Assembly (NCBI GenBank): GCA_946402735.1
Contig: CAMIXH010000003.1
Location: forward strand, 65,472 to 129,471
Direction of reading: 5' to 3'
Length of the DNA stretch: 64,000 nt
Origin: an uncultured Mycoplasmatota bacterium
Lineage (GTDB): Bacteria > Bacillota_I > Bacilli_A > RF39 > UBA660
Of the stretch, positions 33,359-57,573 are shown piece by piece (within the stretch, counting starts at the first letter, position 1; each line of letters opens with the position of its first letter). The notes under the pieces are model-generated. The model worked only from the letters and a program-made list of their open reading frames with translations. It ran no database searches and was not told the DNA's origin. Made by a program: the position numbers and the translations under genes.

Positions 33359-33390
33359 ATATTTAAACTCCTTTTAATTCCCGTACTTAA

Positions 33391-33429: not shown

Positions 33430-33437
33430 ATTCTTTA

Positions 33438-33680: not shown

Positions 33681-33713
33681 TTATTAAATCCTCCTTATAT
33701 TTCTACTAATTTA

Positions 33714-33742
33714 ATTATATAACATAATTTTTTTTTATTCAA
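33714..33742 (-). promoter_or_regulatory. dedicated promoter for the pilin-like gene
   Basis: On the minus strand: TTGAAT (plus 33737-33742), a 17-nt spacer containing A9 (plus T9 at 33728-33736), then TATAAT (plus 33714-33719). Confidence 0.55.
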
Positions 33743-33752
33743 TCATTTTTCC

Positions 33753-34562: not shown

Positions 34563-35461
34563 TACTCAGCACCTACATCCTCATGGTAATATTTAATTCC
34601 TGTAACTAGGAAGAATGTATTTATAAGTATTACCCCATGAAGTAATACTACTACATACCATTGTTCAAGTAATTTTATATAACTATCATTTCCTAATAAT
34701 AATTGAACTAATAATATCAAGAAATATAAGGCTATACCGAATGTTACAAATTGTTTAAAGAAGTTTGCTCTATCAATTCTATCACGATATACACTTTCAA
34801 CAAGCATATCTATATCTTGTGACATACCTTCTAAAGCTTCACCCGAGTCTTTAGAACCTTCTTTTGTTATTTGAATAAATAATTGATGCATATTTCTAAT
34901 AATGTAGTAATCATATTTTTCATTCATAAATCTTATTGCTTCATCTATAGTACCATTATCATATGCCATTTGAATCATTTCTTTAATATCACTTAGAAGT
35001 GGATCTTCAAGTACTCCTGAATCTCTAACACCTTCTAATGATTTAACGAATGATTGAGTTGTGTTATATTCCATAATAACGTTAGTTGTATATATTTGAA
35101 CTTCTTCAAATATATATTCACTATATACCTTTTTGCATCTTAGATATGCTAAATATGGAACAAACAATATTGCCGCTACAGCATATATTATTGACCAAAT
35201 AATACTATAGAAATATAAGTATGCAACAAAGGCAGCTACTACACCGAATAGTATAACTTGTCCTATATATTGCTTTGAAGTATATTCTTGTCCTAATTCT
35301 TTAGCTTTTTCTCTAACTACTTTAAAAGAATAAGGAGCATATCTTTCATAAGTATTACCTATTGTTCTTGCAATAAACTTATATGAATTGTTACCAGTAT
35401 TTTTTCTATAAATATAGATAAATACAAGAATTGCTGCAATTACAAATACTTCTATATACAT
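34562..35461 (-). CDS. tadB: type II secretion system F-family membrane protein (TadB-like)
   Basis: 299-aa protein with the same architecture, immediately after the ATPase. Confidence 0.6.
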   Translation of the reverse strand: MYIEVFVIAAILVFIYIYRKNTGNNSYKFIARTIGNTYERYAPYSFKVVREKAKELGQEYTSKQYIGQVILFGVVAAFVAYLYFYSIIWSIIYAVAAILFVPYLAYLRCKKVYSEYIFEEVQIYTTNVIMEYNTTQSFVKSLEGVRDSGVLEDPLLSDIKEMIQMAYDNGTIDEAIRFMNEKYDYYIIRNMHQLFIQITKEGSKDSGEALEGMSQDIDMLVESVYRDRIDRANFFKQFVTFGIALYFLILLVQLLLGNDSYIKLLEQWYVVVLLHGVILINTFFLVTGIKYYHEDVGAE

Positions 35462-35473
35462 CTTCTACACCTC

Positions 35474-36787: not shown

Positions 36788-36825
36788 TTTTATTCCCTTT
36801 CGTTTATTCTTTTTTTAATTCTTTT

Positions 36826-37620
36826 TTATTCTATTACTGTAATACTCTTATCTACATCTATTTTTTCGATAATATCAGGTTCTAAATATTGAGAATTACT
36901 TTCGATATAAGATAATATCTTTTCATTACCTAATGTAGTTTCAGCATTATAGCTTGCATTTCTTGGAACTGGTAATATTGTTCCACCAGAAATGTAGTAA
37001 GCTCTCTTAATAACTGAGAACATTTCATCTGGTACAGCAAATATTAATGCTTCTGCATTCTTTTGTTCTGCACTCTTCTTGAAAATGTGTGATCCATTTT
37101 CATCTTTAACTGCTAGTACTTCAATACCTTCAATTAAAGGTCCTAAGAACATTTTATTATTTACTGTATTTTGATAATATAAGTCAATTTTATCTCCAGG
37201 ATAAATTGAGTTTCCAAATGTAGAAGTTGAATTAACTTTTAATGAGAAAATTGTGTATCCCTCTTGAATATCAGCCCAAGCTGAGTCTGGCATTTGTTTC
37301 CATTCAACTACTGCACTTCTATAGAACATTCCACCTTCTGGAATATAAGTATTATAATTAACATATTTTCCTAATAAGTCATTTTTATTAATAATAACAT
37401 TACTAGTAATCATAGAATGAGCAACTTTAACAGTTGTAAATAAATCTTCTGTGATTTCTTCTCTTGCTTGAATATCTCTTTTAGCAATTGGTACACTTAC
37501 AGCATTTATTGCTGTATTTACTCTATATCTATAAGCAAAGAATAGAATAACTATACAAGCTATTAATGATAATAAAGTAACAATACTTTTGTTATGAAAT
37601 AATTTACTAAAGAATTTCAT
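36826..37620 (-). CDS. CpaB/RcpC-like Flp pilus assembly protein (TM + SAF domain), copy 2
   Basis: N-terminal TM. VPIAKRDIQAREEITEDLFTTVKV is SAF-like. Collinear with copy 1. Confidence 0.55.
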   Translation of the reverse strand: MKFFSKLFHNKSIVTLLSLIACIVILFFAYRYRVNTAINAVSVPIAKRDIQAREEITEDLFTTVKVAHSMITSNVIINKNDLLGKYVNYNTYIPEGGMFYRSAVVEWKQMPDSAWADIQEGYTIFSLKVNSTSTFGNSIYPGDKIDLYYQNTVNNKMFLGPLIEGIEVLAVKDENGSHIFKKSAEQKNAEALIFAVPDEMFSVIKRAYYISGGTILPVPRNASYNAETTLGNEKILSYIESNSQYLEPDIIEKIDVDKSITVIE

Positions 37621-38438
37621 TATTCACTACACCTCCCTGTTTCTGCCTTATCTAATTGAAATAATTCATCACTTACAGCATTACTTCTAATTTCTTCTTC
37701 AATTAAACTATTTACTATTGCTGTTTGTTTTGGATTTTTTGAATAATTAGCATTTCTTTGAACAGGTATTATTCTACCAACGTTACGATTCTCAGCTATC
37801 TTCAAAAGTCTAAATACTTTGTTTGGCACACTAAATAACAAGAATGCTGGCACTCCTGGATCTCCATTAGTTTCAAATACATTGTTACCATTTGAATCAG
37901 TAACAGATAAAACTTTAATACTTTCAATAAATTTTCCAAACCATACCACTTGTTGTCTATTTACTACTTTAGATGTTTCAAAGTAAAGGTCAATATAGTT
38001 TCCTGGGAAAATTGAATTTCCATATGTTGTTTCAGGATCTACTTTCAAAGCATATACTGTATAACAATCTGGAATATCTTCAAATTCACTTGAAGGCATA
38101 TCCTCCCAATTAACTACCATACTACTATAGAACAAACCATTTTCTGGAATAACTGCCTTATTTGAAACATATTTTCCAATGATTAAGTCCTTATTAATTA
38201 TGGCTCCTCCCTTTACAATTCCACCTGGAACTTTCTTAACCGCAACCATATCAGATGTGATTAATGTTCTAGGTCCAAGCTCCCTTGTTGCATATGGAAC
38301 ACTAACTGGATCAGTAGCTTTCTTAATTCTAAGATAGTATGCTCCATATAGGATTCCTAGCGATGCTAAAATAGCAATAATAGTAACAGTATTTTTATTT
38401 TTTAAAAATCTTTTAATACCAACTAATATACTTCCCAT
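37620..38438 (-). CDS. CpaB/RcpC-like Flp pilus assembly protein (TM + SAF domain), copy 1
   Basis: N-terminal TM. VPYATRELGPRTLITSDMVAVKKV is SAF-like. Shares ..YGNSI(F/Y)PG..IDLY.. with copy 2. Confidence 0.55.
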   Translation of the reverse strand: MGSILVGIKRFLKNKNTVTIIAILASLGILYGAYYLRIKKATDPVSVPYATRELGPRTLITSDMVAVKKVPGGIVKGGAIINKDLIIGKYVSNKAVIPENGLFYSSMVVNWEDMPSSEFEDIPDCYTVYALKVDPETTYGNSIFPGNYIDLYFETSKVVNRQQVVWFGKFIESIKVLSVTDSNGNNVFETNGDPGVPAFLLFSVPNKVFRLLKIAENRNVGRIIPVQRNANYSKNPKQTAIVNSLIEEEIRSNAVSDELFQLDKAETGRCSE

Positions 38439-42072: not shown

Positions 42073-42714
42073 TTAAATACCATGTTTAACTTTTCTATAT
42101 TTATCACTAAATAATGATATAGAAAGAATAGTACTAATTACTGCTAAAAGTATTTTAATGCCCCAAGTAGTTAAGAAAGTCATTACTTTTGACATCATCG
42201 TTTCTTCTGTTTCTACCTCTTCTTTAGTAGTTTTTTGACTAATAGTATGATTATAATTATAAATTGATTTTTCTAATAATGATTTAGTAACTTCAACGTT
42301 AGTAAATTGTGACTTACACATAAGTAGAGTTTCTTCATAACCATTACACATACTACTACCATAATATTTATTAAAATAAGGCTCTTTTGTTACGATTCTT
42401 TTTAAAGCAGTGCAACCATCATCTCCATAAATATCAATGGATACTTTTTCACCACAAGGTATTTTAGAAATAACTATTGTATTATCAGATCCTACTTTAT
42501 ATTTCTTATCATTATATTCAGCATACATTCCTCCAAATAAGTTATAAATTGTTATTGTAAAAGAATTAGCTGATTTTATATAGTTGTTATCATAAGTAAT
42601 ATCTTCTGATAAACTTATATACTCCTTATGTTTCTCCTTATCACAAGTTTTTTCTTCATCTGCATAAACAATAAAAGGAATCATTAATAGTATTAATAAA
42701 ACTATTTTTTTCAT
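42073..42714 (-). CDS. exported Cys-containing protein with C-terminal TM anchor (paralog of 48699..49355)
   Basis: Signal peptide and a C-terminal TM plus basic tail. SIDIYGDDGCTALKRIVTKEPYFNKYYGSSMCNGYEETLLMCKSQFTN aligns with TIEVYGNKESKCDGQLLKKLSYTVPRFNRKVKDARCVGNSDLELCKTFTN. Confidence 0.5.
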   Translation of the reverse strand: MKKIVLLILLMIPFIVYADEEKTCDKEKHKEYISLSEDITYDNNYIKSANSFTITIYNLFGGMYAEYNDKKYKVGSDNTIVISKIPCGEKVSIDIYGDDGCTALKRIVTKEPYFNKYYGSSMCNGYEETLLMCKSQFTNVEVTKSLLEKSIYNYNHTISQKTTKEEVETEETMMSKVMTFLTTWGIKILLAVISTILSISLFSDKYRKVKHGI

Positions 42715-44384
42715 TGCTTACCACCCTTTTCTTCTTTTAATAATACTGCATGTACTACAAGTCTTCTATTATTACCACCAGTACATGTAGATAATGTTAA
42801 TATTTTATCATTAACGCCAACTTTAGTATCATTCTTAAACATGCTTCTTTTTCTGATCATATTTATGAATTTTTCTTTATCTTTATTTGAACTAAATTTA
42901 ACTTTTAAATAATCAGTTGTGTAATCTACTTTATATACAGAGAATATTTTGAAACTCATTGTTCCTTTCTCTGTAGTTAAAGATATTACTAAATTATCCT
43001 CTTCTTTTCTCCAACTACTGTTAGTTACTTTTCTAAGTGTTCCAAACATAGTTCCATTTAACATACTATGTCCATATATTATTGTATTATCATCCATTTT
43101 TTTAACATTATTTCTATAATCAAAGAATAAAGCACCAATACTTGTTTTTCTCTTATAAATATCATGCTTTAAATAATAATTATTATCTGAATGCTTTAAT
43201 ACTGGATAAGATATTTTAGTATTTTTAACTATCAAATACCCTTGTACTTCTTTATTAATCTTTTTTAGCCCTTTTATTGAAGGAGTAAATGTATATCTAT
43301 CTGTAATTTCTTTCTCAGTTAATTTATTAGCATCTTCCATTCCATCTTCAGAAACTTCAGGAATATAAACTGATTCTTCTTCACCTAGTTCATCTAATTC
43401 GTCATCACTTGTATCTATAAAACTACTAGCATCACTTAATATTCTATTTCTCATTTGTTCTACATTGATTTCTTCAATATAATCATATGACTTTACTATT
43501 ATTAATGATACTACGCATACATAAATACATAATATTGATGCTAATTTTAAATTATTAAATGTTAATTGTTTAAATAAATTAGAACTCAAGAATGAATTAG
43601 CATATATTATTCTAAACTCACAAGTATAACTTTCTTTGCATTCATTACTTATTTTCTTTAACCATTCAAAGTTACTTACTATAAAGTCTCCTTTATCATA
43701 TCCTTGATGCAAATAAATAATTACATTTTTAGACTCATCATTTTTAACTTGTTTAACTATTGCTTCAATTAAACTTTTAGAATATGTATAAATATGAATA
43801 GCTTTAAGATTATAGTTTAATTTAAGAAACTCTCTTAAATCATCCATTACACCTGGATATTCCTCATTTATTTTAATTACCTTTTTATAATATAATGTAT
43901 CTATTTCAAAAGCATCTTGTTGCATTAAGAATCTATCACTTATTTTTATGTCAGATGAAAATACAACTTCACATCCTCTTTTTGAAAATTCATTTTTAAT
44001 CTCTTTAGGCATATAAAAGCAATATATATGTTTAAGTGTATTTAATTCTAGTAATTGATTATAATCAGTAAGACTAAGTGTAGAATCAAATTCTAAAACT
44101 AAAGTCTCAATACTTAGTTTTTTCATTACTTCAATTGGATATTTAAATGTTACTAATCTTAATATCTTTATTGAAGTAAATCCTCCGCTTGATAATACTC
44201 CAGTTATATCTTTTATATGTTTTTTAAAATATTTTAGATCATAATAAAGAGAATCTTTATAATAATTGTTTTTATTAATAAAGACAGTTTCATCATCAAG
44301 AAGCGTTCTATAATTAAACACTAATGTATTATCTAATTTTGTTAAAACAAAATATTCCTTCATTATATCTCCAATATTATACAT
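42711..44384 (-). CDS. class B-like sortase fused to a ~280-aa N-terminal cytoplasmic domain
   Basis: The C-terminal third carries NTIIYGHSM (His), ILTLSTCTGG (TLxTC Cys) and NRRLVVHAV (Arg). A TM (LASILCIYVCVVSLIIV) lies around residue 285. Confidence 0.7.
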   Translation of the reverse strand: MYNIGDIMKEYFVLTKLDNTLVFNYRTLLDDETVFINKNNYYKDSLYYDLKYFKKHIKDITGVLSSGGFTSIKILRLVTFKYPIEVMKKLSIETLVLEFDSTLSLTDYNQLLELNTLKHIYCFYMPKEIKNEFSKRGCEVVFSSDIKISDRFLMQQDAFEIDTLYYKKVIKINEEYPGVMDDLREFLKLNYNLKAIHIYTYSKSLIEAIVKQVKNDESKNVIIYLHQGYDKGDFIVSNFEWLKKISNECKESYTCEFRIIYANSFLSSNLFKQLTFNNLKLASILCIYVCVVSLIIVKSYDYIEEINVEQMRNRILSDASSFIDTSDDELDELGEEESVYIPEVSEDGMEDANKLTEKEITDRYTFTPSIKGLKKINKEVQGYLIVKNTKISYPVLKHSDNNYYLKHDIYKRKTSIGALFFDYRNNVKKMDDNTIIYGHSMLNGTMFGTLRKVTNSSWRKEEDNLVISLTTEKGTMSFKIFSVYKVDYTTDYLKVKFSSNKDKEKFINMIRKRSMFKNDTKVGVNDKILTLSTCTGGNNRRLVVHAVLLKEEKGGKQ

Positions 44385-44425: not shown

Positions 44426-44956
44426 TTATTCAATTCCATATTTGTTTATAATATCTTGAAGGGTTCTATAGTTAATCATTCCCTTTGAACTATCTCTAGC
44501 TACTAAGGCATCTCCTTCTTTAATATATATTAATAAAGGAGCTTCATTAATATCTAGAGCTACATTAGGATATTTATTTCTTAACATTCCTATATATTCT
44601 TTATTTTTTAAATCTGTAACATCCCAATAAATAACTCTATCTGTGAGATTTTTATTTTCTATTTCTTTATATAGTTTATTTTCCATTCTATATATTTTTT
44701 TATCACCAGTATAACTTACATACATTATAGCTTCATTAGCTTCTAACATAGCATAATCAAAATCTTGAGTATTAATTTGATTAATTACTTTATTATTAGA
44801 GAAAATACCAATTTCAATTCTATTATTATCATAGTTTAAATAAACAGTTCTAACATATAAAGATAAAGCTATTACCAATAAAGATACACCAAATACTATA
44901 TAATAATTCTTTTTTGGTATCTTTCTTTCTGTTATTTTTTCAAATATTTTTTTCAT
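44426..44956 (-). CDS. membrane-anchored protein, possibly thioredoxin-fold without CxxC
   Basis: N-terminal TM. IMYVSYTGDKKIYRM and APLLIYIKEGDALV resemble the Trx-fold strand pattern, but no cysteines are present. The assignment is weak. Confidence 0.35.
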   Translation of the reverse strand: MKKIFEKITERKIPKKNYYIVFGVSLLVIALSLYVRTVYLNYDNNRIEIGIFSNNKVINQINTQDFDYAMLEANEAIMYVSYTGDKKIYRMENKLYKEIENKNLTDRVIYWDVTDLKNKEYIGMLRNKYPNVALDINEAPLLIYIKEGDALVARDSSKGMINYRTLQDIINKYGIE

Positions 44957-45014: not shown

Positions 45015-45046
45015 TAAAAAAGAAAGATTTTTAAAATCTTTCTTTA
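45015..45046 (-). terminator. terminator after giant gene 2
   Basis: Arms aagaaagatt(tt) (from 45021) and (aa)aatctttctt (to 45045). The upstream A-run gives a U-tract on the minus strand. Confidence 0.6.
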
Positions 45047-48000
45047 ATTCATATTATCAGTATTTACATTACCATATTGACCTGATCTATATTGTGAAGC
45101 GTTTCCTCTTAATACATCTAAGAAGTAACTATTACAATTGTAATAAATACCATCTACTGGATCCTTTTCACAATTATAAATTAGTTCATCAGAATATCCA
45201 CCATTACTATTGTTATATTCTTTAATATTTCTAATTTGTGTTGGATCTAATGTAATACTTGCATCTAAATACTTTTCATCAGTCTTTAGATCACTAGCAG
45301 AGTTTTCAATAGCTTCTTTTGCTTTTTGACCATTAGCAGTATTCCAGTTTGATCCTTCTTTAGTATTTCCTGATGGGAATAGATTTGCAGGATCAACGTT
45401 TCTATATAATGCTGCACTCTTATCTTCACAACTTGTCTTAGTTGGATCATCACAGTTTGGTTTTTGAACATCTACATAACATTTGAATGTATTGTCATCA
45501 TTAATTGTTAGTTTTTGAGTTGTATCATTTCTATAGAACATTAATGGTTTAATTGTTTGAGTTACTGTACATCTATGATATAAACCACCACTTAGTGAAG
45601 TTCTACAAGCATCTAAGTTGTAAGCATCTTTATCAACTGGATAAGAGAAGCTTGCTAATGTTAATAGGTTAGCATTTCCTGTTCCTCTAACAACTTTACC
45701 AGTTCCCATGTCTGCTTGGAATTTATCATTATTATAATAATTTATTTCAGCAGTTACTGTGAATCTAGCATAATCATTTGTTGGAACATCTATATTCTTA
45801 CCTCTAAATAATGTGTATGTCTTCTTTGCAGCTGGTTTATTTGCTGGGTAATTATATGATAATGCATCATTGTTTGGATCATATCCATAACATAATTCTC
45901 CAGTCTTATCTTTACAATAACTAATTCCTGATAACTTACCAGTAAATTTAGAAGCAGCACTGATATTATTTACTCTATTATTTGTTCCTGTTACATCTTT
46001 AATAAGTGCTCCAAATCCATATTTAATTGTATCAGCATTTGAACTTGTTGTCTTATTACCTTCTTTATCTGTTCCTAAACCATATGCATTATTTGAACTA
46101 TAAACTTCTTTAACTTTCTTCATTAATGAAGTTGTATAGTTACGTGGAATATCAACTCCAGCATTCTTGATTTGTTCGGTAGTATAGAAGTTACAATTAT
46201 AAATATCATAAATTATTTGATTTAAGTTGTCATTTCTTTCATTTTCGCCACTAGCTTTTGTTTTTAAGATATTAAATAATCCATCAAAAGTCTTAGTTTT
46301 CTTTAATTCTGTATATTCTTCAGAAGTTAAACCATAAGCAGTCTTTAATTCTTCTAAATTTCCTAAATGAGTATAGTAGATTTCAGATACACAATTTCTC
46401 TTTTCTGCTACGATACTTGTTAGTTTGTAATCTAACTTATTAGTTTTCTTAGCAGGGAATTCTATATCATACATGAATGTTTTACCAGATATAGCTTTTA
46501 CTTTATCTGCTAATGTATATTCAACTTCATCACTACAATATACTCTACAGAAGTTAGTATTAACACCAAAGTAACTACTATAATCGTATCTAGTCTTAGC
46601 AGCAGATTCATTTAAGTTAAGAATACACTTTAATGATGGATCTTTTACTGTTGCACTATATACTCCATTGTAATTATTTTGATCATTTACACACTTGTCG
46701 TCTCCCTCAGTTCTTAAGCTTGTGTCATCACATCCTCCTGCACACTTATAATTTGTTACTGAGAAAGTTGTTTCTGTTTCTTGTCTATCAACTTCAACTG
46801 GTTCTCCTTCTTCATGACCTTCTTCAGTTTCAGTCTCATCTTTGAAGAATGCGAATAATGTTTGATTGATATTAGCATTAGCACAAGAATAATACTTTCT
46901 TACGCTATAACTACTTCTTGTTCTTTCATAAGTTACTTTAATTTCAATATCTTTTCCAGCACTTTCTGTTATGTCACATATTGCAAAATTGAATTTTTCA
47001 GTTCTACATCCAGAACCTTTAATACATTTTTCCATTTCTTTTTCAGTTACAAGAATGTTTCCATCTTCGTCAACAACTTGAACTTTAACTTTACAATATG
47101 GTTTTATTTGAGCAATTACAGCATCTGCTTCACTAGCAGTTTTGCCTTCATTGATTAATTTTGTTCTTAATGCTCCTAATTCAGAATCAGTACATCCTAC
47201 TTGTTCATCATGAATTTCATTCCAGAATGATTCATGTTCGAATGATACTTCAATCCAAGATTCAGTAACTGTTTGAGCAGTTGCTTCTTCCATACTGAAT
47301 TCACTTTGTAATGTAGCTCCAGTTGGTTTAGAACCATCTCCACCACCAAATAATCTACTTAAGTGGTTCTTCATGTATTCGTTACCGATTACAGTATTGA
47401 AGAATAATTCAAATCCTACTAGATAATCAGAGTCATCACCACACATAACTCCTCTCATTGTTTTAACTTTAGCACTATTTTGATTTCTTAATTCCTCAGT
47501 AGTTAAGCAAGCAATCTTTTCAAATGTACTACCATTTAAAACTCCCATTGTATTTCCATTTTCTTCTGGTGGGATATGTGCGTATGTTTTAGCAACATCA
47601 TAGAATTTTTCTTTTGCTACATACATTATATAATCATGTGTATGTTTATAAACATTAACATACTCATCATTTTCATCTGTTGTATAGTATGTAATAGTCT
47701 TACAATCTGAACCACTTACATTTGCAATACCTGTTCTTTCATCTCCAGCTTGTCCAGAGTGAATAGACCAAAGTCTAAGTGCAGTATTAATTGCATCATC
47801 GCTTGTATTATAATAAGCACCTTCGATTAATATGTTAGCATAACCACAATCTACAGTACTATAACTGCTTGCACAGTCATAAACATTAAATGAATCATCA
47901 TATTGATAATTACCTACTCCACCATTGAACTTTTGACTTGGGTTAACACAATATGCTGGTTGACCATCTATTTCAAAGTCAGGAGTACAAGCTTCTATAT

Positions 48001-48697
48001 TTTTATAATATCTTTCGCATGTATATGTAGGACAGTTTAATGTATATTCTGCTACACAAGTACCATCATCACCAAAGCTTTCTCTAGCTGTTGTGATAAC
48101 ATCATCTGTAGCACCTATTTTACTATAAGAATATTCTTTACTATATGTACAAGTTGTTCCTCTATCAACATGTCCTGTTGGAGTATAACCATTTGGGCAT
48201 TCATAATATACAACTGTTCTACTATTACTTCCACCACATGTTTCAGTATCTGCATCCCATGTACAGCCTCCAGTACATTCTGATTCACTCTTATCTGGAC
48301 AAGTATTAGTTGTATCATATGAATGATAACTTGCAGTTGTTGTCTTTGTACATGTTACTTTTGCTGATACGTATCTATCAGGATCACTACATCTTGGTAC
48401 TTCTAGATGCATTATATCTTTGCCATCGTAGCTTTCAACAGTAATTCTTTCTGTTTCATAACCACTATCAAATGCGTCATCATATGTTGAGTAAGTTCCA
48501 CCTTCAACTTTATAATTTCCTGTCTTAGTCCATTTACATACTGGTAATAATACATCGAAACCAGCAGGTGTAATTCCTGTTTCAGTAATTGTTACTTCTT
48601 CATCATCAGGATTACAAACTAATGATGCATTAACAGTAGTTGTAAATAAAGCTACTAAGAATAAAGCAATAAATAATTTAAAGACATTCTTTTTCAT
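45044..48697 (-). CDS. giant secreted cysteine-rich protein, paralog 2 (function unknown; putative adhesin)
   Basis: I place the start at the ATG at 48697 (MKKNVFKLFIALFLVALFTTTVNA signal peptide, GAGAGGAA RBS, 1 nt after the upstream stop). The track extends to 48760. About 43 Cys by hand count. Collinear with 49448..53392. Confidence 0.7.
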   Translation of the reverse strand: MKKNVFKLFIALFLVALFTTTVNASLVCNPDDEEVTITETGITPAGFDVLLPVCKWTKTGNYKVEGGTYSTYDDAFDSGYETERITVESYDGKDIMHLEVPRCSDPDRYVSAKVTCTKTTTASYHSYDTTNTCPDKSESECTGGCTWDADTETCGGSNSRTVVYYECPNGYTPTGHVDRGTTCTYSKEYSYSKIGATDDVITTARESFGDDGTCVAEYTLNCPTYTCERYYKNIEACTPDFEIDGQPAYCVNPSQKFNGGVGNYQYDDSFNVYDCASSYSTVDCGYANILIEGAYYNTSDDAINTALRLWSIHSGQAGDERTGIANVSGSDCKTITYYTTDENDEYVNVYKHTHDYIMYVAKEKFYDVAKTYAHIPPEENGNTMGVLNGSTFEKIACLTTEELRNQNSAKVKTMRGVMCGDDSDYLVGFELFFNTVIGNEYMKNHLSRLFGGGDGSKPTGATLQSEFSMEEATAQTVTESWIEVSFEHESFWNEIHDEQVGCTDSELGALRTKLINEGKTASEADAVIAQIKPYCKVKVQVVDEDGNILVTEKEMEKCIKGSGCRTEKFNFAICDITESAGKDIEIKVTYERTRSSYSVRKYYSCANANINQTLFAFFKDETETEEGHEEGEPVEVDRQETETTFSVTNYKCAGGCDDTSLRTEGDDKCVNDQNNYNGVYSATVKDPSLKCILNLNESAAKTRYDYSSYFGVNTNFCRVYCSDEVEYTLADKVKAISGKTFMYDIEFPAKKTNKLDYKLTSIVAEKRNCVSEIYYTHLGNLEELKTAYGLTSEEYTELKKTKTFDGLFNILKTKASGENERNDNLNQIIYDIYNCNFYTTEQIKNAGVDIPRNYTTSLMKKVKEVYSSNNAYGLGTDKEGNKTTSSNADTIKYGFGALIKDVTGTNNRVNNISAASKFTGKLSGISYCKDKTGELCYGYDPNNDALSYNYPANKPAAKKTYTLFRGKNIDVPTNDYARFTVTAEINYYNNDKFQADMGTGKVVRGTGNANLLTLASFSYPVDKDAYNLDACRTSLSGGLYHRCTVTQTIKPLMFYRNDTTQKLTINDDNTFKCYVDVQKPNCDDPTKTSCEDKSAALYRNVDPANLFPSGNTKEGSNWNTANGQKAKEAIENSASDLKTDEKYLDASITLDPTQIRNIKEYNNSNGGYSDELIYNCEKDPVDGIYYNCNSYFLDVLRGNASQYRSGQYGNVNTDNMN

Positions 48698-48698
48698 A

Positions 48699-49355
48699 TT
48701 ATCTATTCCTCTCTTCTTTTTTAACTTGTCTAATTTTCCTAATGTATATAATTCCAACAATTAAGATAGGTAATACTATAAATAAACCATAACTGATGAT
48801 AGTTGATATTACATCGCTAACAGTAGAACCTTTTTCTTTAATATATTTGCTGATTTCTTTATTAAATTGTTCTTCAGTCATATCTTTTGTTGAATTAGTA
48901 AAAGTCTTACATAATTCTAAATCGCTATTACCTACACATCTTGCATCTTTTACTTTTCTATTAAATCTAGGAACAGTATATGATAACTTCTTAAGTAATT
49001 GTCCATCACATTTACTTTCCTTATTTCCATATACTTCAATTGTATATGTCTCCTCTTCTAAATTAGTAAAAGCTCCAACGCCATATAGATTAACATCTTT
49101 AAAGAATTGTCCATTTGCTTTGTTTCCTTTAGAATCAGCAACTACAATTCTAACATCCTCTCTATATGGAGTAATTGATAAGAAATAAGCATATTTAGAT
49201 ATGTCACTATTCATTACAGTGTTTTCTGTAAACTTAGCTTCTACCTTAGTAGCCCATTCATTTAAATCCTCGTCATTACACTCAGCATTAACGTAATTAA
49301 CGGCGATTAAACTAGCTACTATGAATCCCATCATAATTCTAATAATTTTTTTCAT
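48699..49355 (-). CDS. exported Cys-containing protein with C-terminal TM anchor (paralog of 42073..42714)
   Basis: Signal peptide and a C-terminal TM plus RKIRQVKKEERNR tail. Its stop lies 1 nt before the giant gene 2 start. Confidence 0.5.
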   Translation of the reverse strand: MKKIIRIMMGFIVASLIAVNYVNAECNDEDLNEWATKVEAKFTENTVMNSDISKYAYFLSITPYREDVRIVVADSKGNKANGQFFKDVNLYGVGAFTNLEEETYTIEVYGNKESKCDGQLLKKLSYTVPRFNRKVKDARCVGNSDLELCKTFTNSTKDMTEEQFNKEISKYIKEKGSTVSDVISTIISYGLFIVLPILIVGIIYIRKIRQVKKEERNR

Positions 49356-49410
49356 TTACTCACCTACTATCTAATCAATATTTTATCAAAAAAATATTGA
49401 TTATTCAACA

Positions 49411-49440
49411 ATAAAAGAGAAGATTAAGTAATCTTCTCTC
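49411..49440 (-). terminator. terminator after giant gene 1
   Basis: Arms gagaagatt (49417-49425) and aatcttctc (49430-49438), loop aagt, with a U-tract on the minus strand. Confidence 0.65.
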
Positions 49441-49447
49441 TATTTTT

Positions 49448-52400
49448 TTAATTTTTACCATTATGTTTTTGATCTATTGTTCCATATTCTCCATTTGTTC
49501 TTAATTCTTCCATAAATGGACTTATACAATTTCGGTATGTATCCCCTGAAATCTGGCAGTTAAACACGGCCTCATTAACATATGTATTATTGTTGTTATA
49601 ACTTTTGATATTCTCAATCTGTACTGGATTTAATGTAATACTATATTGAAGATATTCCTCTGTTGTCCTTATAGTACTAGCAGATTGAGTTATATTTAGC
49701 GTTGCTTTTTTACCATTTTCTGTGCCCCAGTTACTATTCGTTTTCGTTGTATATCCATCTGTAGAAGATGGGAACATATTAGCTATATCAACATTTCTAT
49801 AAGTTGTTCCAATTCTACATATTTGTTTTGATGGATCACATTCAGGTGATGGAATTTCAACATCAACATAACAGCTATGATTCTTATGATTATTAACAGT
49901 CGTATAGAATGAATCATTACTATTTTTTCTAAAGTATGTTTCAATTCTATTATAGCTATGTGTAATATTACATCTTCTATAATTAATTCCTTTTAAGAAA
50001 TCTCTATCTGAGCATACTCCTGAATTATATGCATTACGATCAACAGTATATGCATATGCATCAAGTAATAAGTAATTTTTACCTCTTTCACTACCAGCTG
50101 TTATAACTTTACCATCTGGTTTAACTTGATATCTAGAACTGTTATAGAATGATATATCTGTTTGAACAGTAAACATTACATAATCATTTATTGGTATATC
50201 TACTTTATCGCTTGAGAATACTTGACCACTTATACGAGTATTATCACCAAACGTTTCTTTAACATCTAATGTTTCTGTTGAACTAGTTTTATTAGTTGGA
50301 TAATTATATTCATTTTCTGGATGATCTAAATCGTAATAGAAGCAATCCTCTCCAGAACAATATATTAAATCACTAAGTGTATTTTTTGAACTAACAACAG
50401 ATTTCATTACAGCTGTTTTTCCTGCAGTTGGAGCTCCAAAATCATATTGAATATTATTCATACTAACACATTCTCTATCTCTTTCGGCATCACTAGCTCC
50501 AAATTTACAATTAGTATCTGTTCCAATACCATAATTATTACTCTTTTGGAATTTCTTAATAATTGTTTCTTTTATATTTTTAGCTTTATAATCTTTAGGT
50601 TTAACAACTCCAGCATCTTTTATTTCTTTTTCTGTATATAAATTACAATTGAATAAATCATATAGAATTCTATTGATGTTTTCTGTTCTTCCACCTTCGT
50701 TTTGAGCTTTTTTAACTAAAACTTCAAATAATGTTTTCCAACTATCAATACCTTCTATTTCTTCATCTGTTATACCATCAGAAGTTCCACGTGTAGTCTT
50801 ACCTAAATTATATATGCCTTTCCAATCAACACTATCAGAGAATTTATTTACATCATAGTATATTTCTGAAACACAGTTTCTCTTTTCTTCTACTATATTT
50901 GTAAATAAATATCTAATGTTTTTATCGTTTCTTACTGATCTTTCAATATCATAATAGAATCTCTTACCAGAAGTTTCTTTTATCTTATCGGCCATATGGA
51001 ATACTACTTCATCACTACAATAAATTCTACAGAATCTATTTCCGACTTCAAACTCATCACTATAATTGTATGAGTTCTTATAAGCAGCACTTCCCATATT
51101 TAAAATACATTTTAATGATGGATCTTTAAATGATGAATCATAAGTTCTATTATAATTGCTTGCGTTGTCATCACAATTATCTTTAGAATCTTCTCTTATT
51201 GAATAATCATCACAGAAACCAGCACATTTATAGTTACGTATTTCAAATGTCTCTGAATATGGTTCTCTTTCCTCTGTTGGATCAGTACTTGGATGAGTTT
51301 CTGTATCTGTCAAATCCGCATCAAATCCAAATAATATTTGATTATTTAATGGGTTAGAACATGATACGTATTTTGTAACACTTTTACTACTTGGTGATTT
51401 TTCATAAGTTACAACAATTTTAATTGGTGTTGTAATACTTTCATCTAAATCACAAATAGCAAAGTTTTCTAATTTTCTTCTACAATAGTTTTTAATACAA
51501 TAATCAGGATATGCAGGTCCATAACCTGGTAGTTCTCTGCCTCTTCCATCAACTAATGATATTTCAACTCTACAGAATGGTTCGATTTGTTCCTTTTGTT
51601 CTGCTGTTATTTTACCAGAACTTACCATTTCATCTAATTTTGTACAATCTATTTTAAGATTTGAGTTATGAGTTACTTCTCTTAATTCTTCAAAAGTAAC
51701 TTGAACATATTGTGTTCCATCTTCCGAAGTCATTAATTCTGCTGTTTCTACTTCTTCACTTATTTCCCCATCAAATAAATCTCTTAAGTGTTCTTGCATT
51801 TTATTGTTTCCAAGAACTGTATTAGCAAGTAAAGCAAGAGCTACTTTGTATTCTTGATCTCCTGTTCCACAGGCTACACCTAATTTATTTTTATCACATG
51901 TTATTTCAAATACACTCAAATCTCCTGTAGGAATTATTTCATCTTTATATCTAACTTTATCTAATATTACTTTTGCAAATTCCTTATATGTTTCTACATA
52001 AGGATTAATTAAGTCTCCTGAATATCCATTAGATAACATAAAGTAAGTTGCAGTTCCACAATTAGTACCTGTTCTATTTGATATACCAATTGTATCAAAA
52101 CCAGCTTGTTGTGTATGAACACCCCAAAGTCTCATTGCAAATTCTATTGTTTTGTCAGGGATTTCATATTTTGCTCCCTCAATTAATATATTTGCATATC
52201 CACAATCTACAGTACTATAACTTGTTTCACAATTTTTAACACTAAAATCAGAGTCCGGAATATACTCAGCAGTTGTTGAATATCCTGAAGAGAACTCTTG
52301 TCCAGGGTTAACACAGTAAACTGTTCCTCCTGTTGGAGTTTGAAACACTGGAGTACATAACTCGACTTCTTTATCTTCTTTTGTACAAGTATAAACTGGG

Positions 52401-53392
52401 CAATAGAATGCATAAGCTATATCGCTTGCATTACAAGTACATGAAGATACTGAATTAGCTGTTTTACATTCTGAAATAGCAGTAGAAACATTTACTTGTC
52501 TACTTGTATGTTCAGCATCCCCTTCTTTTTTATCTTCATAAGTCCATGTTTCTTCTTTTTCACACCATTGATCATCTTTATTTGAAGCTTTGTTGAAAGT
52601 CCAACCAGTATCGCAACTGATTGTATCTGGATCACTTACGGTTTTAGTTTTTATGCATGCAATCTCGTTTGCACTAAGACCACTTCGATCTACTTTTTTG
52701 TCGCATGTAGAACATCCGCCTCCGCCGCCATCATCTACAACCATAGCTTCCATATTTGAAACTTTTGGATTTATAATTAATTCATTATCGAAAATTTCAG
52801 GTTTAATATCTAAGAAAGATTTGCTTGCTTCCCTTACAATTTCAGGTCTTGGATTTGGTCTAACTGGGCTAATAACAGTATTGCCTCCGCCGCCACTTGG
52901 AGGTGAATCATCGTCTCCTTCTTCCAATTTTTTAACACAATCTTGATCTACATATTCTTCAGTATGTGAATGTGGAGTATATGTTGGACGAACCCTAGCA
53001 GTATAAGTACATGGTAAAATTCCTTTAACATACGATTTTGGATCTGAACATATTGGTAGTGAAACTGTAATAACTCCTTTGTTATCAGCTCTTTTTATTG
53101 TATACCAATCATGATAATCACCAATACCAGTAACCCAAGTATAGTCACTCCAGTCTTGCCTTCCTCCTTGAGGAACACCTACACCAGAACCAATACTAAC
53201 TTGTTGGAATCCTGAGATTGTGAATGTACCACAAACAGGCATAGTAGCAGTAATATGAGTTGGACCAAACATAGTTGTCTCAGTCATAAGAACTTTTTCT
53301 TCTGAACAAGTTAGTTCATCCGCTACTATCTTATTTGTATATATAAAAATCAAAAAAACTAATAATACTAATTTTGCAATTGTTTTTTTCAT
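49448..53392 (-). CDS. giant secreted cysteine-rich protein, paralog 1 (function unknown; putative adhesin)
   Basis: Start placed at the ATG at 53392 (MKKTIAKLVLLVFLIFIYTNKIVA signal peptide, GAGGAA RBS). The track extends to 53419. Blocks shared with paralog 2: SYSTVDCGYANILIEGA, KDPSLKCILN, FCR(I/V)YCSDEV, EKRNCVSEIYY. Confidence 0.7.
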   Translation of the reverse strand: MKKTIAKLVLLVFLIFIYTNKIVADELTCSEEKVLMTETTMFGPTHITATMPVCGTFTISGFQQVSIGSGVGVPQGGRQDWSDYTWVTGIGDYHDWYTIKRADNKGVITVSLPICSDPKSYVKGILPCTYTARVRPTYTPHSHTEEYVDQDCVKKLEEGDDDSPPSGGGGNTVISPVRPNPRPEIVREASKSFLDIKPEIFDNELIINPKVSNMEAMVVDDGGGGGCSTCDKKVDRSGLSANEIACIKTKTVSDPDTISCDTGWTFNKASNKDDQWCEKEETWTYEDKKEGDAEHTSRQVNVSTAISECKTANSVSSCTCNASDIAYAFYCPVYTCTKEDKEVELCTPVFQTPTGGTVYCVNPGQEFSSGYSTTAEYIPDSDFSVKNCETSYSTVDCGYANILIEGAKYEIPDKTIEFAMRLWGVHTQQAGFDTIGISNRTGTNCGTATYFMLSNGYSGDLINPYVETYKEFAKVILDKVRYKDEIIPTGDLSVFEITCDKNKLGVACGTGDQEYKVALALLANTVLGNNKMQEHLRDLFDGEISEEVETAELMTSEDGTQYVQVTFEELREVTHNSNLKIDCTKLDEMVSSGKITAEQKEQIEPFCRVEISLVDGRGRELPGYGPAYPDYCIKNYCRRKLENFAICDLDESITTPIKIVVTYEKSPSSKSVTKYVSCSNPLNNQILFGFDADLTDTETHPSTDPTEEREPYSETFEIRNYKCAGFCDDYSIREDSKDNCDDNASNYNRTYDSSFKDPSLKCILNMGSAAYKNSYNYSDEFEVGNRFCRIYCSDEVVFHMADKIKETSGKRFYYDIERSVRNDKNIRYLFTNIVEEKRNCVSEIYYDVNKFSDSVDWKGIYNLGKTTRGTSDGITDEEIEGIDSWKTLFEVLVKKAQNEGGRTENINRILYDLFNCNLYTEKEIKDAGVVKPKDYKAKNIKETIIKKFQKSNNYGIGTDTNCKFGASDAERDRECVSMNNIQYDFGAPTAGKTAVMKSVVSSKNTLSDLIYCSGEDCFYYDLDHPENEYNYPTNKTSSTETLDVKETFGDNTRISGQVFSSDKVDIPINDYVMFTVQTDISFYNSSRYQVKPDGKVITAGSERGKNYLLLDAYAYTVDRNAYNSGVCSDRDFLKGINYRRCNITHSYNRIETYFRKNSNDSFYTTVNNHKNHSCYVDVEIPSPECDPSKQICRIGTTYRNVDIANMFPSSTDGYTTKTNSNWGTENGKKATLNITQSASTIRTTEEYLQYSITLNPVQIENIKSYNNNNTYVNEAVFNCQISGDTYRNCISPFMEELRTNGEYGTIDQKHNGKN

Positions 53393-54273: not shown

Positions 54274-56862
54274 TTAACTTTGTATTTCTACAATCTTTAG
54301 ATTATTATCTCTTGCTATTTCTAATAAATCCGAAGTTAGTTTACTAGTTACTATAATATAAGAAGCTTCCATCTTTTTATCATTATAACTATCACTATTA
54401 ACTTTTACTATAATTTTATCATCTTCACTTGTGAATCTAATACTTCTTCCTTCGACTAATGTATTATACGCATAAACATTTTTAGTTAATTGACTAACAT
54501 TTAAGCATTCAAAATTGCTGCCATCATCATTAGTTGAGCATAATACTCTAAAGTCTTGATTAACTACAGTATATACTTCTACACCTTCACGTTCATTCTT
54601 AATAACTATATCAGGTCTAGAATTATAAAGAGCTTCTATTTCTCCTATTGAAACAATTTCATTGTTAATTAAATCAACTCTATATTTCTTTAGTTTATTA
54701 AATAATTCCATTGTTCCTAGTATATTTCTTTTAACTTTGTTCTTAATAACATTTTCAATAAAAGTAATTAATAAATCAAAATCATTTATTGAGAATAATA
54801 ACTTAGTCATTGAGAATAATTCAACTTCATCATTAGTAAATACTTTTTTGCCATCTATTTCTAATGTTTTTAAAGCATCTATTTCATATATATCACATAC
54901 TTGTTTAACAGTATCTGTTTCTAACCATCCTACATCACCTTTTTCATCATAAGACTTATTAAATAAGTAATGACATAGTATATTTTTATATATTTTCTCA
55001 TCTTTAATATTTGTTAATTCATTAACAACCTTTTTAATAGAAATAATATCATAATCACTTAATTGATCTTTCTTTTCTATCTTATATGGATTAAAGAATG
55101 TTGCTAATAATAATGCTAAGTTCTCTAATTCTTCTCTATTTAATTCTTTATCTTGTATATCAGTTATTATTCCTTTATAGTAATTAAAGTTTTCAATTAT
55201 TCTATATAATGTTTCTTTATTCTCTCCATAGATATGTATTACTATTTCATAATATAATTTAAATAACTCATATATTTTATCTGATTTAACAATTAACAAT
55301 AGATTAGATATATTAACAAAATTATATTTAGAAAAATCATCTAATAATTCTTTACTAATAAATGATAATTTTGGATCAAATAATTCTAATGAACTTAGAT
55401 TATATATTTCTTTATTATTATTAACTGTTGTATTATATGCAGTTGATAATATTTCATTTAATAATTTAACACATAGTTTCTTTGAAGTATCAGTTGCATT
55501 GTTTTTATACATTAAACATGTACCAATATATATTGATATTTTTTCAAAATTATTCTTTTCAATTATACTTTTATTAAATAGAATCTTCAATAATTCTAAA
55601 ATACATCTATAATCTCTAGCAAAATTATAATCTTCTAAGTTTTCTAAGTATTCATTATATATTTTATTTATTATTTTATAATATTTAGCATATATATCAT
55701 TTCCATAGTATGCTTTAAATACATTTAAACATCTAAGGTTAGAATCTATAATTATTCTTTCTTTTTCTTCTTTTGAAACAGTATCTATATATAATGGTGC
55801 TACATATGGAAGTATATAATTAGCATCTACCATTATTAAAGTAACTATTTGATCTATTGATAATTTTTGTATCTTACGCATTAAAGTTTTAGTATATTGA
55901 TAGCTTATATCATTGCTCTTAGGATGAAATCTATATAATTTACCCTTAGCATTTAATACACATTTATTAACTAAAACATTAACTATTTCTTTATTACTTT
56001 TACTTTGAATACTATCAAGTAATTCACATATCATTTCTTGAGTATCTTCATTCTTTCTATTTGATAATGATAAATTAACATTCTTTATTAATGAAAAATC
56101 ATATTTTAATAAACTTATAATAGTAGGCGTTTCTAAATAATTCATTATATATGGACGTCTCTTGACATACTCTCTTTGGATATCCATATCAGATTGTTTA
56201 AGTAAATTAATGTCTTCTTCTATTTTTTCTAATTGTGAATTTATATATTTTTCTCTAGCTTCTCCATTTAAATACATAACAAACTTTTCATCTTCAGCTT
56301 TTTCTTTTTGAATGTTTTGAGAAGCATACTTAATAAACACTGGGTTAACATCAATTATATATTCCCATTGTCTATCTATAAACTTATCTTTAGCTGCCTC
56401 AATAATAGCTTCAGTTTGTTTTAAATCATATTCACTAAGAACTTTAACTACTGTTCTTAAGTCATTCATGAATAGTAAAGGTAAATCCTTAGGTTGTTTA
56501 AAGTATAATTTTATATATTCTTTTTGTTCTTCTTCAGTTAAACCAACGTTAGCAGCATTCATAAAGAACTTATTGCCACTAATCCAAGAACTAACTAAGC
56601 CTCTTTTGGCTTCATCACTACCCTGTTTAAACATTTGAAGATTGCTATTGATTCTTGATTTTTGGAAATCAACAGGCATTATTCTTATTAAAGAAGGGTA
56701 GTTAAAAAATAGGTAGCTTAAAACTATCTCATTATTTTCGAATTCTTTATTGTCTAAATAAGCTTGTTCAACCTCTTTTTCACTCTTGTTTTTTAGAGTT
56801 TTAATAAAGTTGTTAGCTTTTCTTGCTATTTGTCTACTTTGAAATTGCTTAAATAGTGACAT
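54274..56862 (-). CDS. large (862 aa) predicted cytoplasmic helical protein, no recognisable domain
   Basis: Long uninterrupted ORF with no signal peptide or TM and no motif I recognise. Confidence 0.6.
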   Translation of the reverse strand: MSLFKQFQSRQIARKANNFIKTLKNKSEKEVEQAYLDNKEFENNEIVLSYLFFNYPSLIRIMPVDFQKSRINSNLQMFKQGSDEAKRGLVSSWISGNKFFMNAANVGLTEEEQKEYIKLYFKQPKDLPLLFMNDLRTVVKVLSEYDLKQTEAIIEAAKDKFIDRQWEYIIDVNPVFIKYASQNIQKEKAEDEKFVMYLNGEAREKYINSQLEKIEEDINLLKQSDMDIQREYVKRRPYIMNYLETPTIISLLKYDFSLIKNVNLSLSNRKNEDTQEMICELLDSIQSKSNKEIVNVLVNKCVLNAKGKLYRFHPKSNDISYQYTKTLMRKIQKLSIDQIVTLIMVDANYILPYVAPLYIDTVSKEEKERIIIDSNLRCLNVFKAYYGNDIYAKYYKIINKIYNEYLENLEDYNFARDYRCILELLKILFNKSIIEKNNFEKISIYIGTCLMYKNNATDTSKKLCVKLLNEILSTAYNTTVNNNKEIYNLSSLELFDPKLSFISKELLDDFSKYNFVNISNLLLIVKSDKIYELFKLYYEIVIHIYGENKETLYRIIENFNYYKGIITDIQDKELNREELENLALLLATFFNPYKIEKKDQLSDYDIISIKKVVNELTNIKDEKIYKNILCHYLFNKSYDEKGDVGWLETDTVKQVCDIYEIDALKTLEIDGKKVFTNDEVELFSMTKLLFSINDFDLLITFIENVIKNKVKRNILGTMELFNKLKKYRVDLINNEIVSIGEIEALYNSRPDIVIKNEREGVEVYTVVNQDFRVLCSTNDDGSNFECLNVSQLTKNVYAYNTLVEGRSIRFTSEDDKIIVKVNSDSYNDKKMEASYIIVTSKLTSDLLEIARDNNLKIVEIQS

Positions 56863-56958
56863 AATCCAACCTCTTCTATTCCATTCTATAGTTTATTATA
56901 ACATAATAAAAAATGAAAAAAAAGACGAATAAATAAAAACAAATAAGTTATTTCTAAC

Positions 56959-57573
56959 CTATTCGTTATTTTTTTGTTTCTTTTTTAAATAAATGATTCC
57001 AATTACTATGCCTATTCCCACTAGTACAAATAGTATATTTTGTAAAGTAAATATATTATTTTTTAATATTTCTTTGCTGATATTGAAATGAATATCATTG
57101 TTTTCTTTTTGTACATTCCAAATATATTCATTATTACTCTTTTCATCAGCATTATTACTCATCATTCTATTATCTGCTTTAACATTTAAAGTAAATGGAG
57201 CACATTCACTTTTTCCTTTTAAATAGATAAATATTGTTTTATCATCTTCTTCAACAGCAGCATATTCAAAACATCTTTTTAAAATATCATTCTCTTTAAA
57301 ATTATCATATGTGTATGTATAACTATATTCTCCTTTGTAATTACCATTTTGATCACTATAGCTTACTTCTTTATATATTTCATCATATGAATCCTTTATA
57401 GGACGAGCTTCATTTATTATAGCTTCTATATCCATACCAGATTGATTATATTCTACTTCAGTAAATGAAAATTCTATTTTAGTATCTATTTTATCATTAA
57501 AATCAATAGTTAGTTTATTAGTACATCCCGCTAGGATAAAACATATTAGAATTAAAATTAGTCCTTTTTTCAT
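56959..57573 (-). CDS. lipoprotein with additional C-terminal TM anchor
   Basis: Lipobox LILICFILAGC. C-terminal ILFVLVGIGIVIGIIYLKKKQK. Confidence 0.55.
   Translation of the reverse strand: MKKGLILILICFILAGCTNKLTIDFNDKIDTKIEFSFTEVEYNQSGMDIEAIINEARPIKDSYDEIYKEVSYSDQNGNYKGEYSYTYTYDNFKENDILKRCFEYAAVEEDDKTIFIYLKGKSECAPFTLNVKADNRMMSNNADEKSNNEYIWNVQKENNDIHFNISKEILKNNIFTLQNILFVLVGIGIVIGIIYLKKKQKNNE

Follow-up and report, generated by a model that had tools for sequence, protein, structure and literature searches.

Giant cysteine-rich secreted proteins with a possible thioester-domain-like core beside a Tad-like gene module in uncultured gut Bacilli

Results

The two giant genes and their products

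The window, that is, the whole stretch of 64,000 nucleotides analysed here (contig CAMIXH010000003.1 of GenBank assembly GCA_946402735.1, from an uncultured Mycoplasmatota bacterium), had a G+C content of about 26% and carried two long minus-strand open reading frames (ORF) with a 218-aa ORF, sm218, between them. The two long ORF, GIANT1 (45044-48760, 1238 aa counted from TTG) and GIANT2 (49448-53419, 1323 aa), encoded cysteine-rich proteins which an original prediction, made from the sequence alone, had described as secreted paralogs with a signature recalling the thioester domains (TED) of adhesins. Judging by the sequence, the true starts were most likely ATG 48697 for GIANT1 and ATG 53392 for GIANT2. 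The former had an AGGAA ribosome-binding site, lay 1 nt past the TAA stop of the upstream 218-aa gene, which suggested translational coupling, and gave a 1217-aa product identical to database protein P0001. The latter was preceded by a GAGGAA site and agreed with the end coordinate of 53392 originally proposed. Residue numbers count from the ORF starts (53419 for GIANT2).

45044..48697, minus strand: GIANT1, the downstream paralog, 1217 aa from ATG 48697, 43 Cys, signal peptide VNA/S
48699..49355, minus strand: sm218, 218 aa, with signal peptide, 4-Cys ectodomain, C-terminal transmembrane helix and basic tail
49448..53392, minus strand: GIANT2, the upstream paralog, 1314 aa from ATG 53392, 47 Cys, signal peptide IVA/D

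GIANT1 and GIANT2 aligned near full length (BLASTP: 38% identity across 1059 residues, E = 0, plus 30% across the N-terminal 133 residues), a similarity far beyond chance at the sequence level and in agreement with their description as paralogs. Every conserved block quoted in the original prediction was found in both proteins: CP(T/V)YTC, YCVNP, GYANILIEGA, RLW, QAG, KDPSLKCILN, FCR(V/I)YCSDEV and EKRNCVSEIYY. The hand count of about 43 Cys held for the downstream paralog (43; upstream paralog, 47). Cysteine made up 3.5% of the giants vs. 0-3.1% (mostly 0.5-2%) of the 30 other ORF in the window. In both giants the sole hydrophobic stretch was the N-terminal signal peptide, and neither an LPXT[GAS] motif nor a C-terminal transmembrane segment was present in GIANT1 or GIANT2, so that hydrophobicity and motif scans bore out the predicted Sec signal peptides without LPXTG or transmembrane anchor. 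Cna or ester domains, of the type that forms the stalk of TIE adhesins, were absent from the giants by Pfam search.

Family extent and database searches

The giants were members of a large, undescribed family of secreted proteins of about 1,200 residues from uncultured gut Bacilli. A word-indexed search returned 53 close homologs, none with a name and none with a Pfam domain. A profile search run exhaustively over 1.84 billion cluster representatives returned 460 proteins with E <= 1e-3, of which 152 reached E <= 1e-30; each represented a cluster at 50% identity, and most were 1,000-1,600 residues long. The survey of distribution that had been proposed placed the family, among the species-representative genomes searched, only in uncultured metagenome-assembled genomes whose labels were Bacilli, Erysipelotrichaceae or 'Tenericutes' and whose samples came from rumen, rabbit gut and the like. 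Two family alignments were used, one of 49 close homologs and one of 137 full-length members (22-30% identity to GIANT1 at the far end); the cysteines were near-invariant across both.

Neither window giant matched Pfam, NCBIfam or PHROGs. The proposed HMMER comparison with Pfam TED and TIGR03934 left both giants below the curated thresholds, with no match to Pfam TED or TED_2 at E <= 1 and none to NCBIfam, TIGR03934 included, at E <= 0.1. By curated thresholds the giants were not TED family members. The family profile had 0 matches among PDB sequences at E <= 10.

Predicted architecture

AlphaFold2 models were built for the two halves of GIANT1, each on the 49-sequence alignment (N-half: predicted local distance difference test score, pLDDT, 87.5 and predicted TM-score, pTM, 0.74; C-half: pLDDT 83.1, pTM 0.76). 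In the predicted order, the signal peptide is followed by a stalk in which very long beta-strands extend over about 220 residues, and then by a short strand that closes with the YC motif. Next come a helical region, opened by the helices CGYANILIEGA and AINTALRLW, a beta domain, an acidic low-confidence linker and a mixed alpha/beta C-terminal region of about 570 residues. Model strands are given in mature-protein numbering.

47966..48625, minus strand: GIANT1 N-terminal stalk, about 220 residues, very long beta-strands (model strands 14-219), 14 Cys
47717..47998, minus strand: GIANT1 TED-like N-lobe, ORF residues 255-348, delimited by hhalign, a hidden Markov model (HMM) of TED_2 sequences and model secondary structure; strand ending Y270-C271, C296-x8-C305 loop, helices CGYANILIEGA and AINTALRLW
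47948-47950, minus strand: codon of C271, at the end of model strand 222-226
46826..47716, minus strand: rest of the GIANT1 head, a helical region and the beta domain from C556 to the hairpin
47087-47101, minus strand: C556 motif PYCKV, at the start of the beta domain
46862-46864, minus strand: codon of Q633, carried by the hairpin SVRKYYSCANANINQTLFAF at the end of the beta domain
45047..46765, minus strand: GIANT1 C-terminal region, about 570 residues after the acidic linker, confident model; contains KDPSLKCILN, FCRVYCSDEV, EKRNCVSEIYY and C1094 (FKCYVDV, codon 45479-45481)
52313-52315, minus strand: codon of C369, the YC Cys of GIANT2
51338-51340, minus strand: codon of Q694, the invariant Gln of GIANT2
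49871-49873, minus strand: codon of C1183, the C-terminal lone Cys of GIANT2

In these models both halves were confidently predicted and without structural relatives, the predicted C-terminal fold being novel. The structure prediction and Foldseek comparison that had been proposed as a check of TED likeness (both half-models against PDB, and the N-half also against BFVD) returned no significant match. Weak matches to leukocidin, aerolysin and perforin-2 had probabilities <= 0.07 and a root-mean-square deviation (rmsd) of about 30 Å.

Resemblance to thioester domains

The bond-forming Cys of TED lies in a [YFL]C-phi-zeta motif on a beta-strand, and the third TED motif, TQxx-phi-W on helix alpha-2, contains a Gln and a Trp that are dispensable for bond formation (PMC6194298). 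The Gln of TQxA, which the original prediction had treated as the bond-forming residue, hence belonged to the wrong motif. The QAG that it had called conserved carried Gln in only 31 of 49 close homologs (63%), and this Gln was ruled out as a functional residue.

The reference set consisted of nine TED sequences, those of the pLS20 TED adhesin (PMC8092201) and of eight diverse plasmid relatives; a close relative of the pLS20 adhesin carried Pfam PF20610 (TED_2). The nine-TED profile found 6fx6, the solved thioester domain of SaTIE (E = 1e-4), and aligned its thioester Cys. By hhalign, the head of the giant family (137 sequences) matched the nine TED with P = 8.3e-5 when the 391-residue head was used and P = 5.7e-6 with residues 255-345. 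Controls gave P = 0.98 (family reversed) and 0.33-0.84 (other regions of the protein); of 30 TED alignments with shuffled columns, the best reached 0.08. The alignment paired G..AYCVNP with G..AFCIDP, DCGYANILIEG with DDGxKAILYYG, and ALRLW with VALNNW, which correspond to the Cys strand, helix 1 and helix 2. A second, in-house hhalign comparison on whole-protein alignments matched these residues again (P = 6.6e-4). Dozens of family members were hit by an HMM built from the nine TED, always at the YC region (GIANT1 255-348). Among 35 divergent members scanned, P0174 matched PF20610 at E = 9.6e-4 over residues 39-89, its PAYCIQPGKRAP region, exactly on its YC motif.

The YCVN stretch fitted [YFL]C-phi-zeta, and its Cys was kept in 146 of 147 members and aligned to the TED Cys. 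Only phi-W was retained from TQxx-phi-W, with W331 conserved in 91% and Thr not conserved. In the Foldseek comparison of the N-half, 6fx6 ranked 10 and had the top probability among the 50 PDB matches listed, although not significantly (E = 0.31, probability 0.14, TM-score 0.21, with a 605-residue multidomain query that lowers sensitivity). A phmmer search of PDB with the pLS20 TED found no TED; TED are therefore very divergent, and a negative sequence search is weak evidence. Homolog searches with the pLS20 TED and with the 137-sequence family alignment made almost no additions.

The signature originally proposed was thus retained in part: by profile-profile comparison the YC...GY...RLW stretch resembled the N-lobe of a TED, and the curated TED models remained unmatched. 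On the sequence comparisons, we take the first 90 or so residues of the head to be a remote homolog of the N-lobe of class II (TED_2) TED.

An invariant Gln and the coevolution of its flanks with those of C271

Q633 (NINQTLF; Q694 in GIANT2) was Gln in all 137 full-length members aligned and, by region-specific HMM alignment, in 104 of 104, and its column was the sole Gln column conserved above 70% in the 137-member alignment. It was located 362 residues downstream of C271, in the model within the beta-hairpin that ends the beta domain. Divergent members, P0174 among them, read YQTFI at this motif, which fits phi-Q-zeta-phi-phi. The best local match of the Q633 region to the TED profile placed Q633 on the thioester Gln, weakly (P = 0.02-0.16). 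Q633, unnoticed by the original prediction, was the relevant candidate for a bond-forming Gln on the basis of these alignments.

Coevolution was assessed by mean-field direct-coupling analysis (effective sequence number about 117, about 66,000 scored pairs), which recovered known or probable disulfide pairs (579-585 at rank 2, 742-790 at rank 25). The pair V272-L635 ranked 21 of about 66,000 (z = 5.5), and V272-T634 had z = 4.0. Coupling between the flanks of C271 and those of Q633 stood out against 20,000 random anchor pairs by the maximum (p = 0.0035), the second-highest (p = 0.0009) and the mean value (p = 0.0076), and the same analysis gave no signal between the flanks of C271 and of C1094. 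In a map restricted to Cys neighbourhoods, the best partner of Q633 among 28 anchor positions was C271, and the coevolution neighbours of C271 were C305, C296, Q633 and C556.

Two other chemistries were considered and rejected. A Cys protease (Cys plus oxyanion Gln) had no conserved His, Asp or Asn partner among columns conserved at >= 90%, and a Thr-Gln ester bond at Q633 had no conserved Thr, His or Asp.

Cysteine counts

The number of Cys in the mature protein was odd in 47 of 49 close members (range 37 to 57; 39 core Cys columns) and in 118 of the 137 members of the wider family. Cysteines were gained or lost pairwise at 579/585, 742/790, 949/957, 1197/1209 and 353/523. Odd counts together with pairwise gain and loss indicated about 21 disulfides with exactly one Cys left over, which is compatible with a thioester without demonstrating one. 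The Cys count of the N-half was even in >= 90% of close members. If C271 formed a thioester, one Cys of the N-half, perhaps C556, would have to bridge to C1094. The odd count shifted between regions in divergent subgroups, so that the disulfides are not all local, and region-by-region parity failed as a means of naming the unpaired Cys for this same reason. Pairing of the odd Cys of the giant with a fifth Cys of sm218 was also rejected: sm218 of the window has 4 Cys and GIANT1 is still odd.

P0073 was the sole member with C271 replaced (by Gly); it also lacked C1094 and C690 and had Tyr at W331. It retained Q633 and all other conserved blocks. In P0082 the C1094 Cys was relocated, P0030 lacked C556 only, and short divergent members without C556 sometimes gained a Cys 13-18 residues past the YC Cys.

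The small partner sm218 and its relatives

Context was compared over 10 distinct loci extending beyond the giant genes. An sm218-like gene preceded 13 of 14 giant copies, and the ectodomain of the sm218 family had 4-5 Cys. The sm218 module was fused in frame to a giant, through a transmembrane hairpin, in P0046, P0071, P0081, P0084 and two ORF of locus L012. Gene order and fusions were strong evidence, at the level of sequence, that sm218 and the giant are physical partners, and we infer that sm218 would anchor the giant, which has no anchor of its own.

42073..42714, minus strand: sm213, a paralog of sm218 with the same architecture (BLASTP E = 5e-5, hhalign P = 1.8e-7)
56959-57573, minus strand: 204-aa lipoprotein, a remote relative of sm218 (hhalign P = 3e-4)

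sm218, sm213 and the lipoprotein shared one build: a signal peptide or lipobox comes first, then an ectodomain with Cys, and the protein ends with a transmembrane helix and a basic tail. No conserved motif preceded the transmembrane segment of sm218 or sm213, and both were rejected as sortase substrates.

The surrounding locus

Gene order was conserved across the loci compared, beginning with the gene of the 862-aa protein and an HD-domain gene of opposite orientation; then came the cassette of sm218 and giant, in one or two copies, and the PedC-like gene. It continued with a membrane-anchored class B sortase fusion, sm213, DUF5411 (with dockerin) and two CpaB-like genes. The TadA/CpaF ATPase gene followed, then those of two platform proteins (putative), of the short pilin-like protein and of the TadE-like protein. 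Identity between species was 82-93% for TadA and 81-94% for the second platform gene vs. only 25-35% for the giants. Such fast divergence is typical of exposed, interacting surface proteins.

31415..38438, minus strand: Tad-like module with T2SSE and RcpC domains; genes for two RcpC/CpaB-like proteins, the TadA/CpaF ATPase, two platform proteins (putative, by position only), a pilin-like protein of 80 aa (4 Cys; by position and shape), a TadE-like protein of 168 aa, a 326-aa protein and a membrane protein of 122 aa
41205..42017, minus strand: DUF5411 and dockerin protein, by Pfam
42711..44384, minus strand: 557-aa sortase fusion, with a cytoplasmic N-terminal domain of about 290 residues, a transmembrane helix and a class B sortase domain
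44426..44956, minus strand: PedC-like protein (PF20207/DUF6568), adjoining the giants and conserved there
54274..57573, minus strand: conserved 862-aa protein and the 204-aa lipoprotein

The sortase domain scored above the TIGR03064 cut-off and had the TLSTC, His and Arg motifs; none of the proteins of the locus had a recognisable sorting signal. The PedC-like protein contained 0 Cys (homologs, 0-1) beside proteins with more than 40; without Cys it cannot be a CxxC oxidoreductase, and it may be a chaperone. The 80-aa pilin-like protein (33438-33680) and the 168-aa TadE-like protein (32852-33358) had 4 Cys each, kept in homologs, and extracytoplasmic disulfides therefore seem common in this locus. 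Neither a prepilin peptidase nor an Flp motif was identified within the window, and the platform proteins had no Pfam match. DUF5411 has been reported to mark a CpaF/PilC system of gut Firmicutes, itself uncharacterised, that includes adhesin-like proteins (PMC9523054).

The opposite-strand HD-domain gene (53499-54074) had the same position and orientation in the nine distinct loci whose sequence reaches there. A YfhO-family membrane protein (845 aa, 38586-41123) was located between the DUF5411 and CpaB genes and was absent from that position in the related loci examined. The N-terminal membrane region of a 391-aa C39-like peptidase (57582-58757) resembled the 122-aa membrane protein (31415-31783; 38% identity over 107 residues, BLASTP E = 0.008). 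The segment 23041-28682 was the only plus-strand gene block, GC skew changed sign there, and it included a LytR-CpsA-Psr protein; an LtaS-type sulfatase (29327-31174) adjoined it. These two proteins argue that this lineage, labelled 'Tenericutes', has a cell wall.

Discussion

Comparison with class II thioester domains

The closest described counterparts of the giants are the class II TED of TIE adhesins (PF20610; SaTIE 6fx6, BaTIE 6fwv and TIEpLS20). Both have the [YFL]C-phi-zeta motif at the end of a beta-strand and two subsequent helices of which the second ends in phi-W, and both are secreted surface proteins of Gram-positives. In each the Cys is invariant, and so is a Gln on a late beta-hairpin, past an inserted beta domain, although the two Gln correspond only tentatively. 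The giants differ in that helical and beta insertions separate their Cys and Gln, and in having about 42 further cysteines, whereas the TED of TIEpLS20 has a single Cys (PMC8092201). They also have a tail-anchored partner instead of the CnaB/isopeptide stalk and LPXTG of TIE proteins, and a C-terminal region of about 570 residues unrelated to anything known.

A thioester-based adhesin

The favoured reading, to which we assign a probability of about 0.45, is that the giants are a disulfide-rich, partner-anchored and Tad-associated variant of covalent thioester adhesins. About 21 disulfides would rigidify the protein. The leftover Cys would be C271, which on folding would attack the side chain of Q633 to give a Cys-Gln thioester of the TED type, and this thioester would later react with a nucleophile on the target surface and attach the protein covalently, as in SfbI, SaTIE and TIEpLS20. 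Lacking an LPXTG or transmembrane anchor, the giants would be held on the cell surface by the co-translated, tail-anchored sm218, and would serve the Tad-like pilus or secretion system next to them as adhesins that evolve fast. Taken by itself, a thioester between C271 and Q633 has, from the alignments and Cys counts, a little less than an even chance; a disulfide at C271 is possible at somewhat longer odds, and other arrangements of C271 take up the remainder. More tentatively, the giants could be a third structural class of TED, in which about 360 residues are inserted between the Cys strand and the Gln hairpin, some 21 disulfides form the scaffold, and the protein is displayed without sortase, through its tail-anchored partner, as the covalent adhesin of a Tad-like pilus system; C556 or C1094 could gate the warhead by redox.

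Several observations weigh against the thioester adhesin. The similarity to TED was limited to the N-lobe, the TQ of TQxx-phi-W was missing, with Ala at the Gln position (96% conserved), neither window giant reached any curated TED threshold, and the match of P0174 to PF20610 scored 19.5 bits, below the 27-bit cut-off. Foldseek returned nothing at E <= 1e-3 for either half-model. The spacing between C271 and Q633 is 362 residues vs. 171-204 between Cys and Gln in known TED (PMC6194298, PMC8092201). The cumulative Cys count was even at every domain boundary until C1094, so that the simplest local pairing leaves C1094 unpaired and C271 paired, most plausibly with C556, and the presence of C556 in the coevolution neighbourhood of C271 makes it an alternative partner. 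P0073, which lost C271, is one of only two members in which C1094 was cleanly substituted. Lastly, the anchoring by sm218 and the adhesin role are deduced from context only.

Alternative explanations

Much of this evidence speaks for the main rival, in which the giants derive from TED and have lost the thioester. C271 would then sit in a structural disulfide, most likely with C556 and less likely with C1094; the one free Cys would be C1094 or C556, which might serve to link molecules by a disulfide, Q633 would be kept for structure, and the giants would belong to the Tad-like system as adhesins that bind non-covalently or as structural proteins of the surface. This is a serious possibility with the odds against it. 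It would account for the even Cys count of the N-half with the odd Cys mapping to C1094, the nearness of C556 to C271 in the coupling map, the new Cys past YC in some short members without C556, the joint loss of C271 and C1094 in P0073, and the missing TQ and unmatched curated models. It leaves unexplained a Gln invariant in 137 of 137 members at 22-30% identity whose flanks co-evolve with those of C271, and it demands a conserved free Cys amid about 21 disulfides; the flanks of C271 showed no coevolution with those of C1094, and the joint loss of the two Cys was seen in one sequence. Relative to what is described, the loss of the thioester and the thioester adhesin would both be new.

It is unlikely that the TED likeness is convergence or chance in a wholly novel fold, with the conserved Cys and Gln having other chemistry or none. 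Every Foldseek match was non-significant, the window giants had no Pfam, NCBIfam or PDB-sequence match, and the aligned stretch is short (60-90 residues), all of which would fit such a fold; yet three independent profile methods agreed on the residues with clean controls, 6fx6, the one solved TED found by profile, also had the top Foldseek probability among the matches listed, and the Cys and Gln motifs stand in the same order as in TED.

Secreted effectors or toxins (e.g., pore-forming or contact-dependent) exported with the help of the Tad-like or type II secretion-like machine, with sm218 as immunity protein or chaperone, would be in line with the very long N-terminal beta-hairpins predicted, the fast divergence relative to neighbouring genes, the pairing of each giant with a small membrane protein and the weak Foldseek matches to leukocidin, aerolysin and perforin-2, but are very improbable, since those matches had probabilities <= 0.07 at an rmsd of about 30 Å, in-frame fusions of sm218 and giant argue for a permanent complex rather than a toxin with its immunity protein, and no toxin domain was detected (Pfam, NCBIfam, PHROGs).

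Relation to Tad-like systems

The pLS20 TED adhesin gene likewise lies just upstream of a tadA-like ATPase gene (PMC8092201). In pLS20 (NC_015148.1, 6477-12586), three small genes come after the thioester adhesin gene, and then an ATPase annotated as tadA and two proteins of about 250 aa, an arrangement that matches the window. The type IV-pilus-like CpaF/PilC/DUF5411 system of Roseburia, Ruminococcus and Eubacterium (PMC9523054) shares with the present locus an operon that combines a CpaF-type ATPase, putative platform proteins, DUF5411 and an adhesin-like ('cell invasion') protein. Its large proteins are internalin-like, whereas those of the window are cysteine-rich giants; the present locus also has two CpaB-like genes, a sortase-B fusion, a PedC-like protein and sm218/sm213, and its host belongs to uncultured Bacilli labelled 'Tenericutes' or Erysipelotrichaceae. 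Tad/Flp (type IVc) pili have the TadA/CpaF ATPase, RcpC/CpaB, a short pilin-like and a TadE-like protein in the same canonical order, and differ from the locus by the prepilin peptidase and Flp motif, which were not identified within the window. We know of no described Tad system with giant disulfide-rich partners.

Significance

To our knowledge, thioester domains are the only way in which bacterial adhesins bond covalently to their targets, and TED are so far known to us only as small, Cys-poor modules in sortase-anchored proteins. If the thioester reading is true, a family of 460 clusters with a remote, disulfide-rich, partner-anchored TED-like core would widen the range of thioester chemistry. 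It would also open, for the first time, a functional way into the conserved but uncharacterised Tad-like surface system of these uncultured Bacilli of rumen and gut, and would imply that proteins outside the cytoplasm are extensively disulfide-bonded in a lineage of anaerobic Firmicutes. Even without a thioester, a family with two confidently predicted halves lacking structural relatives stands, as does the partner relationship of sm218 and giant seen in natural gene fusions, with the presumed anchoring of the giant by sm218.

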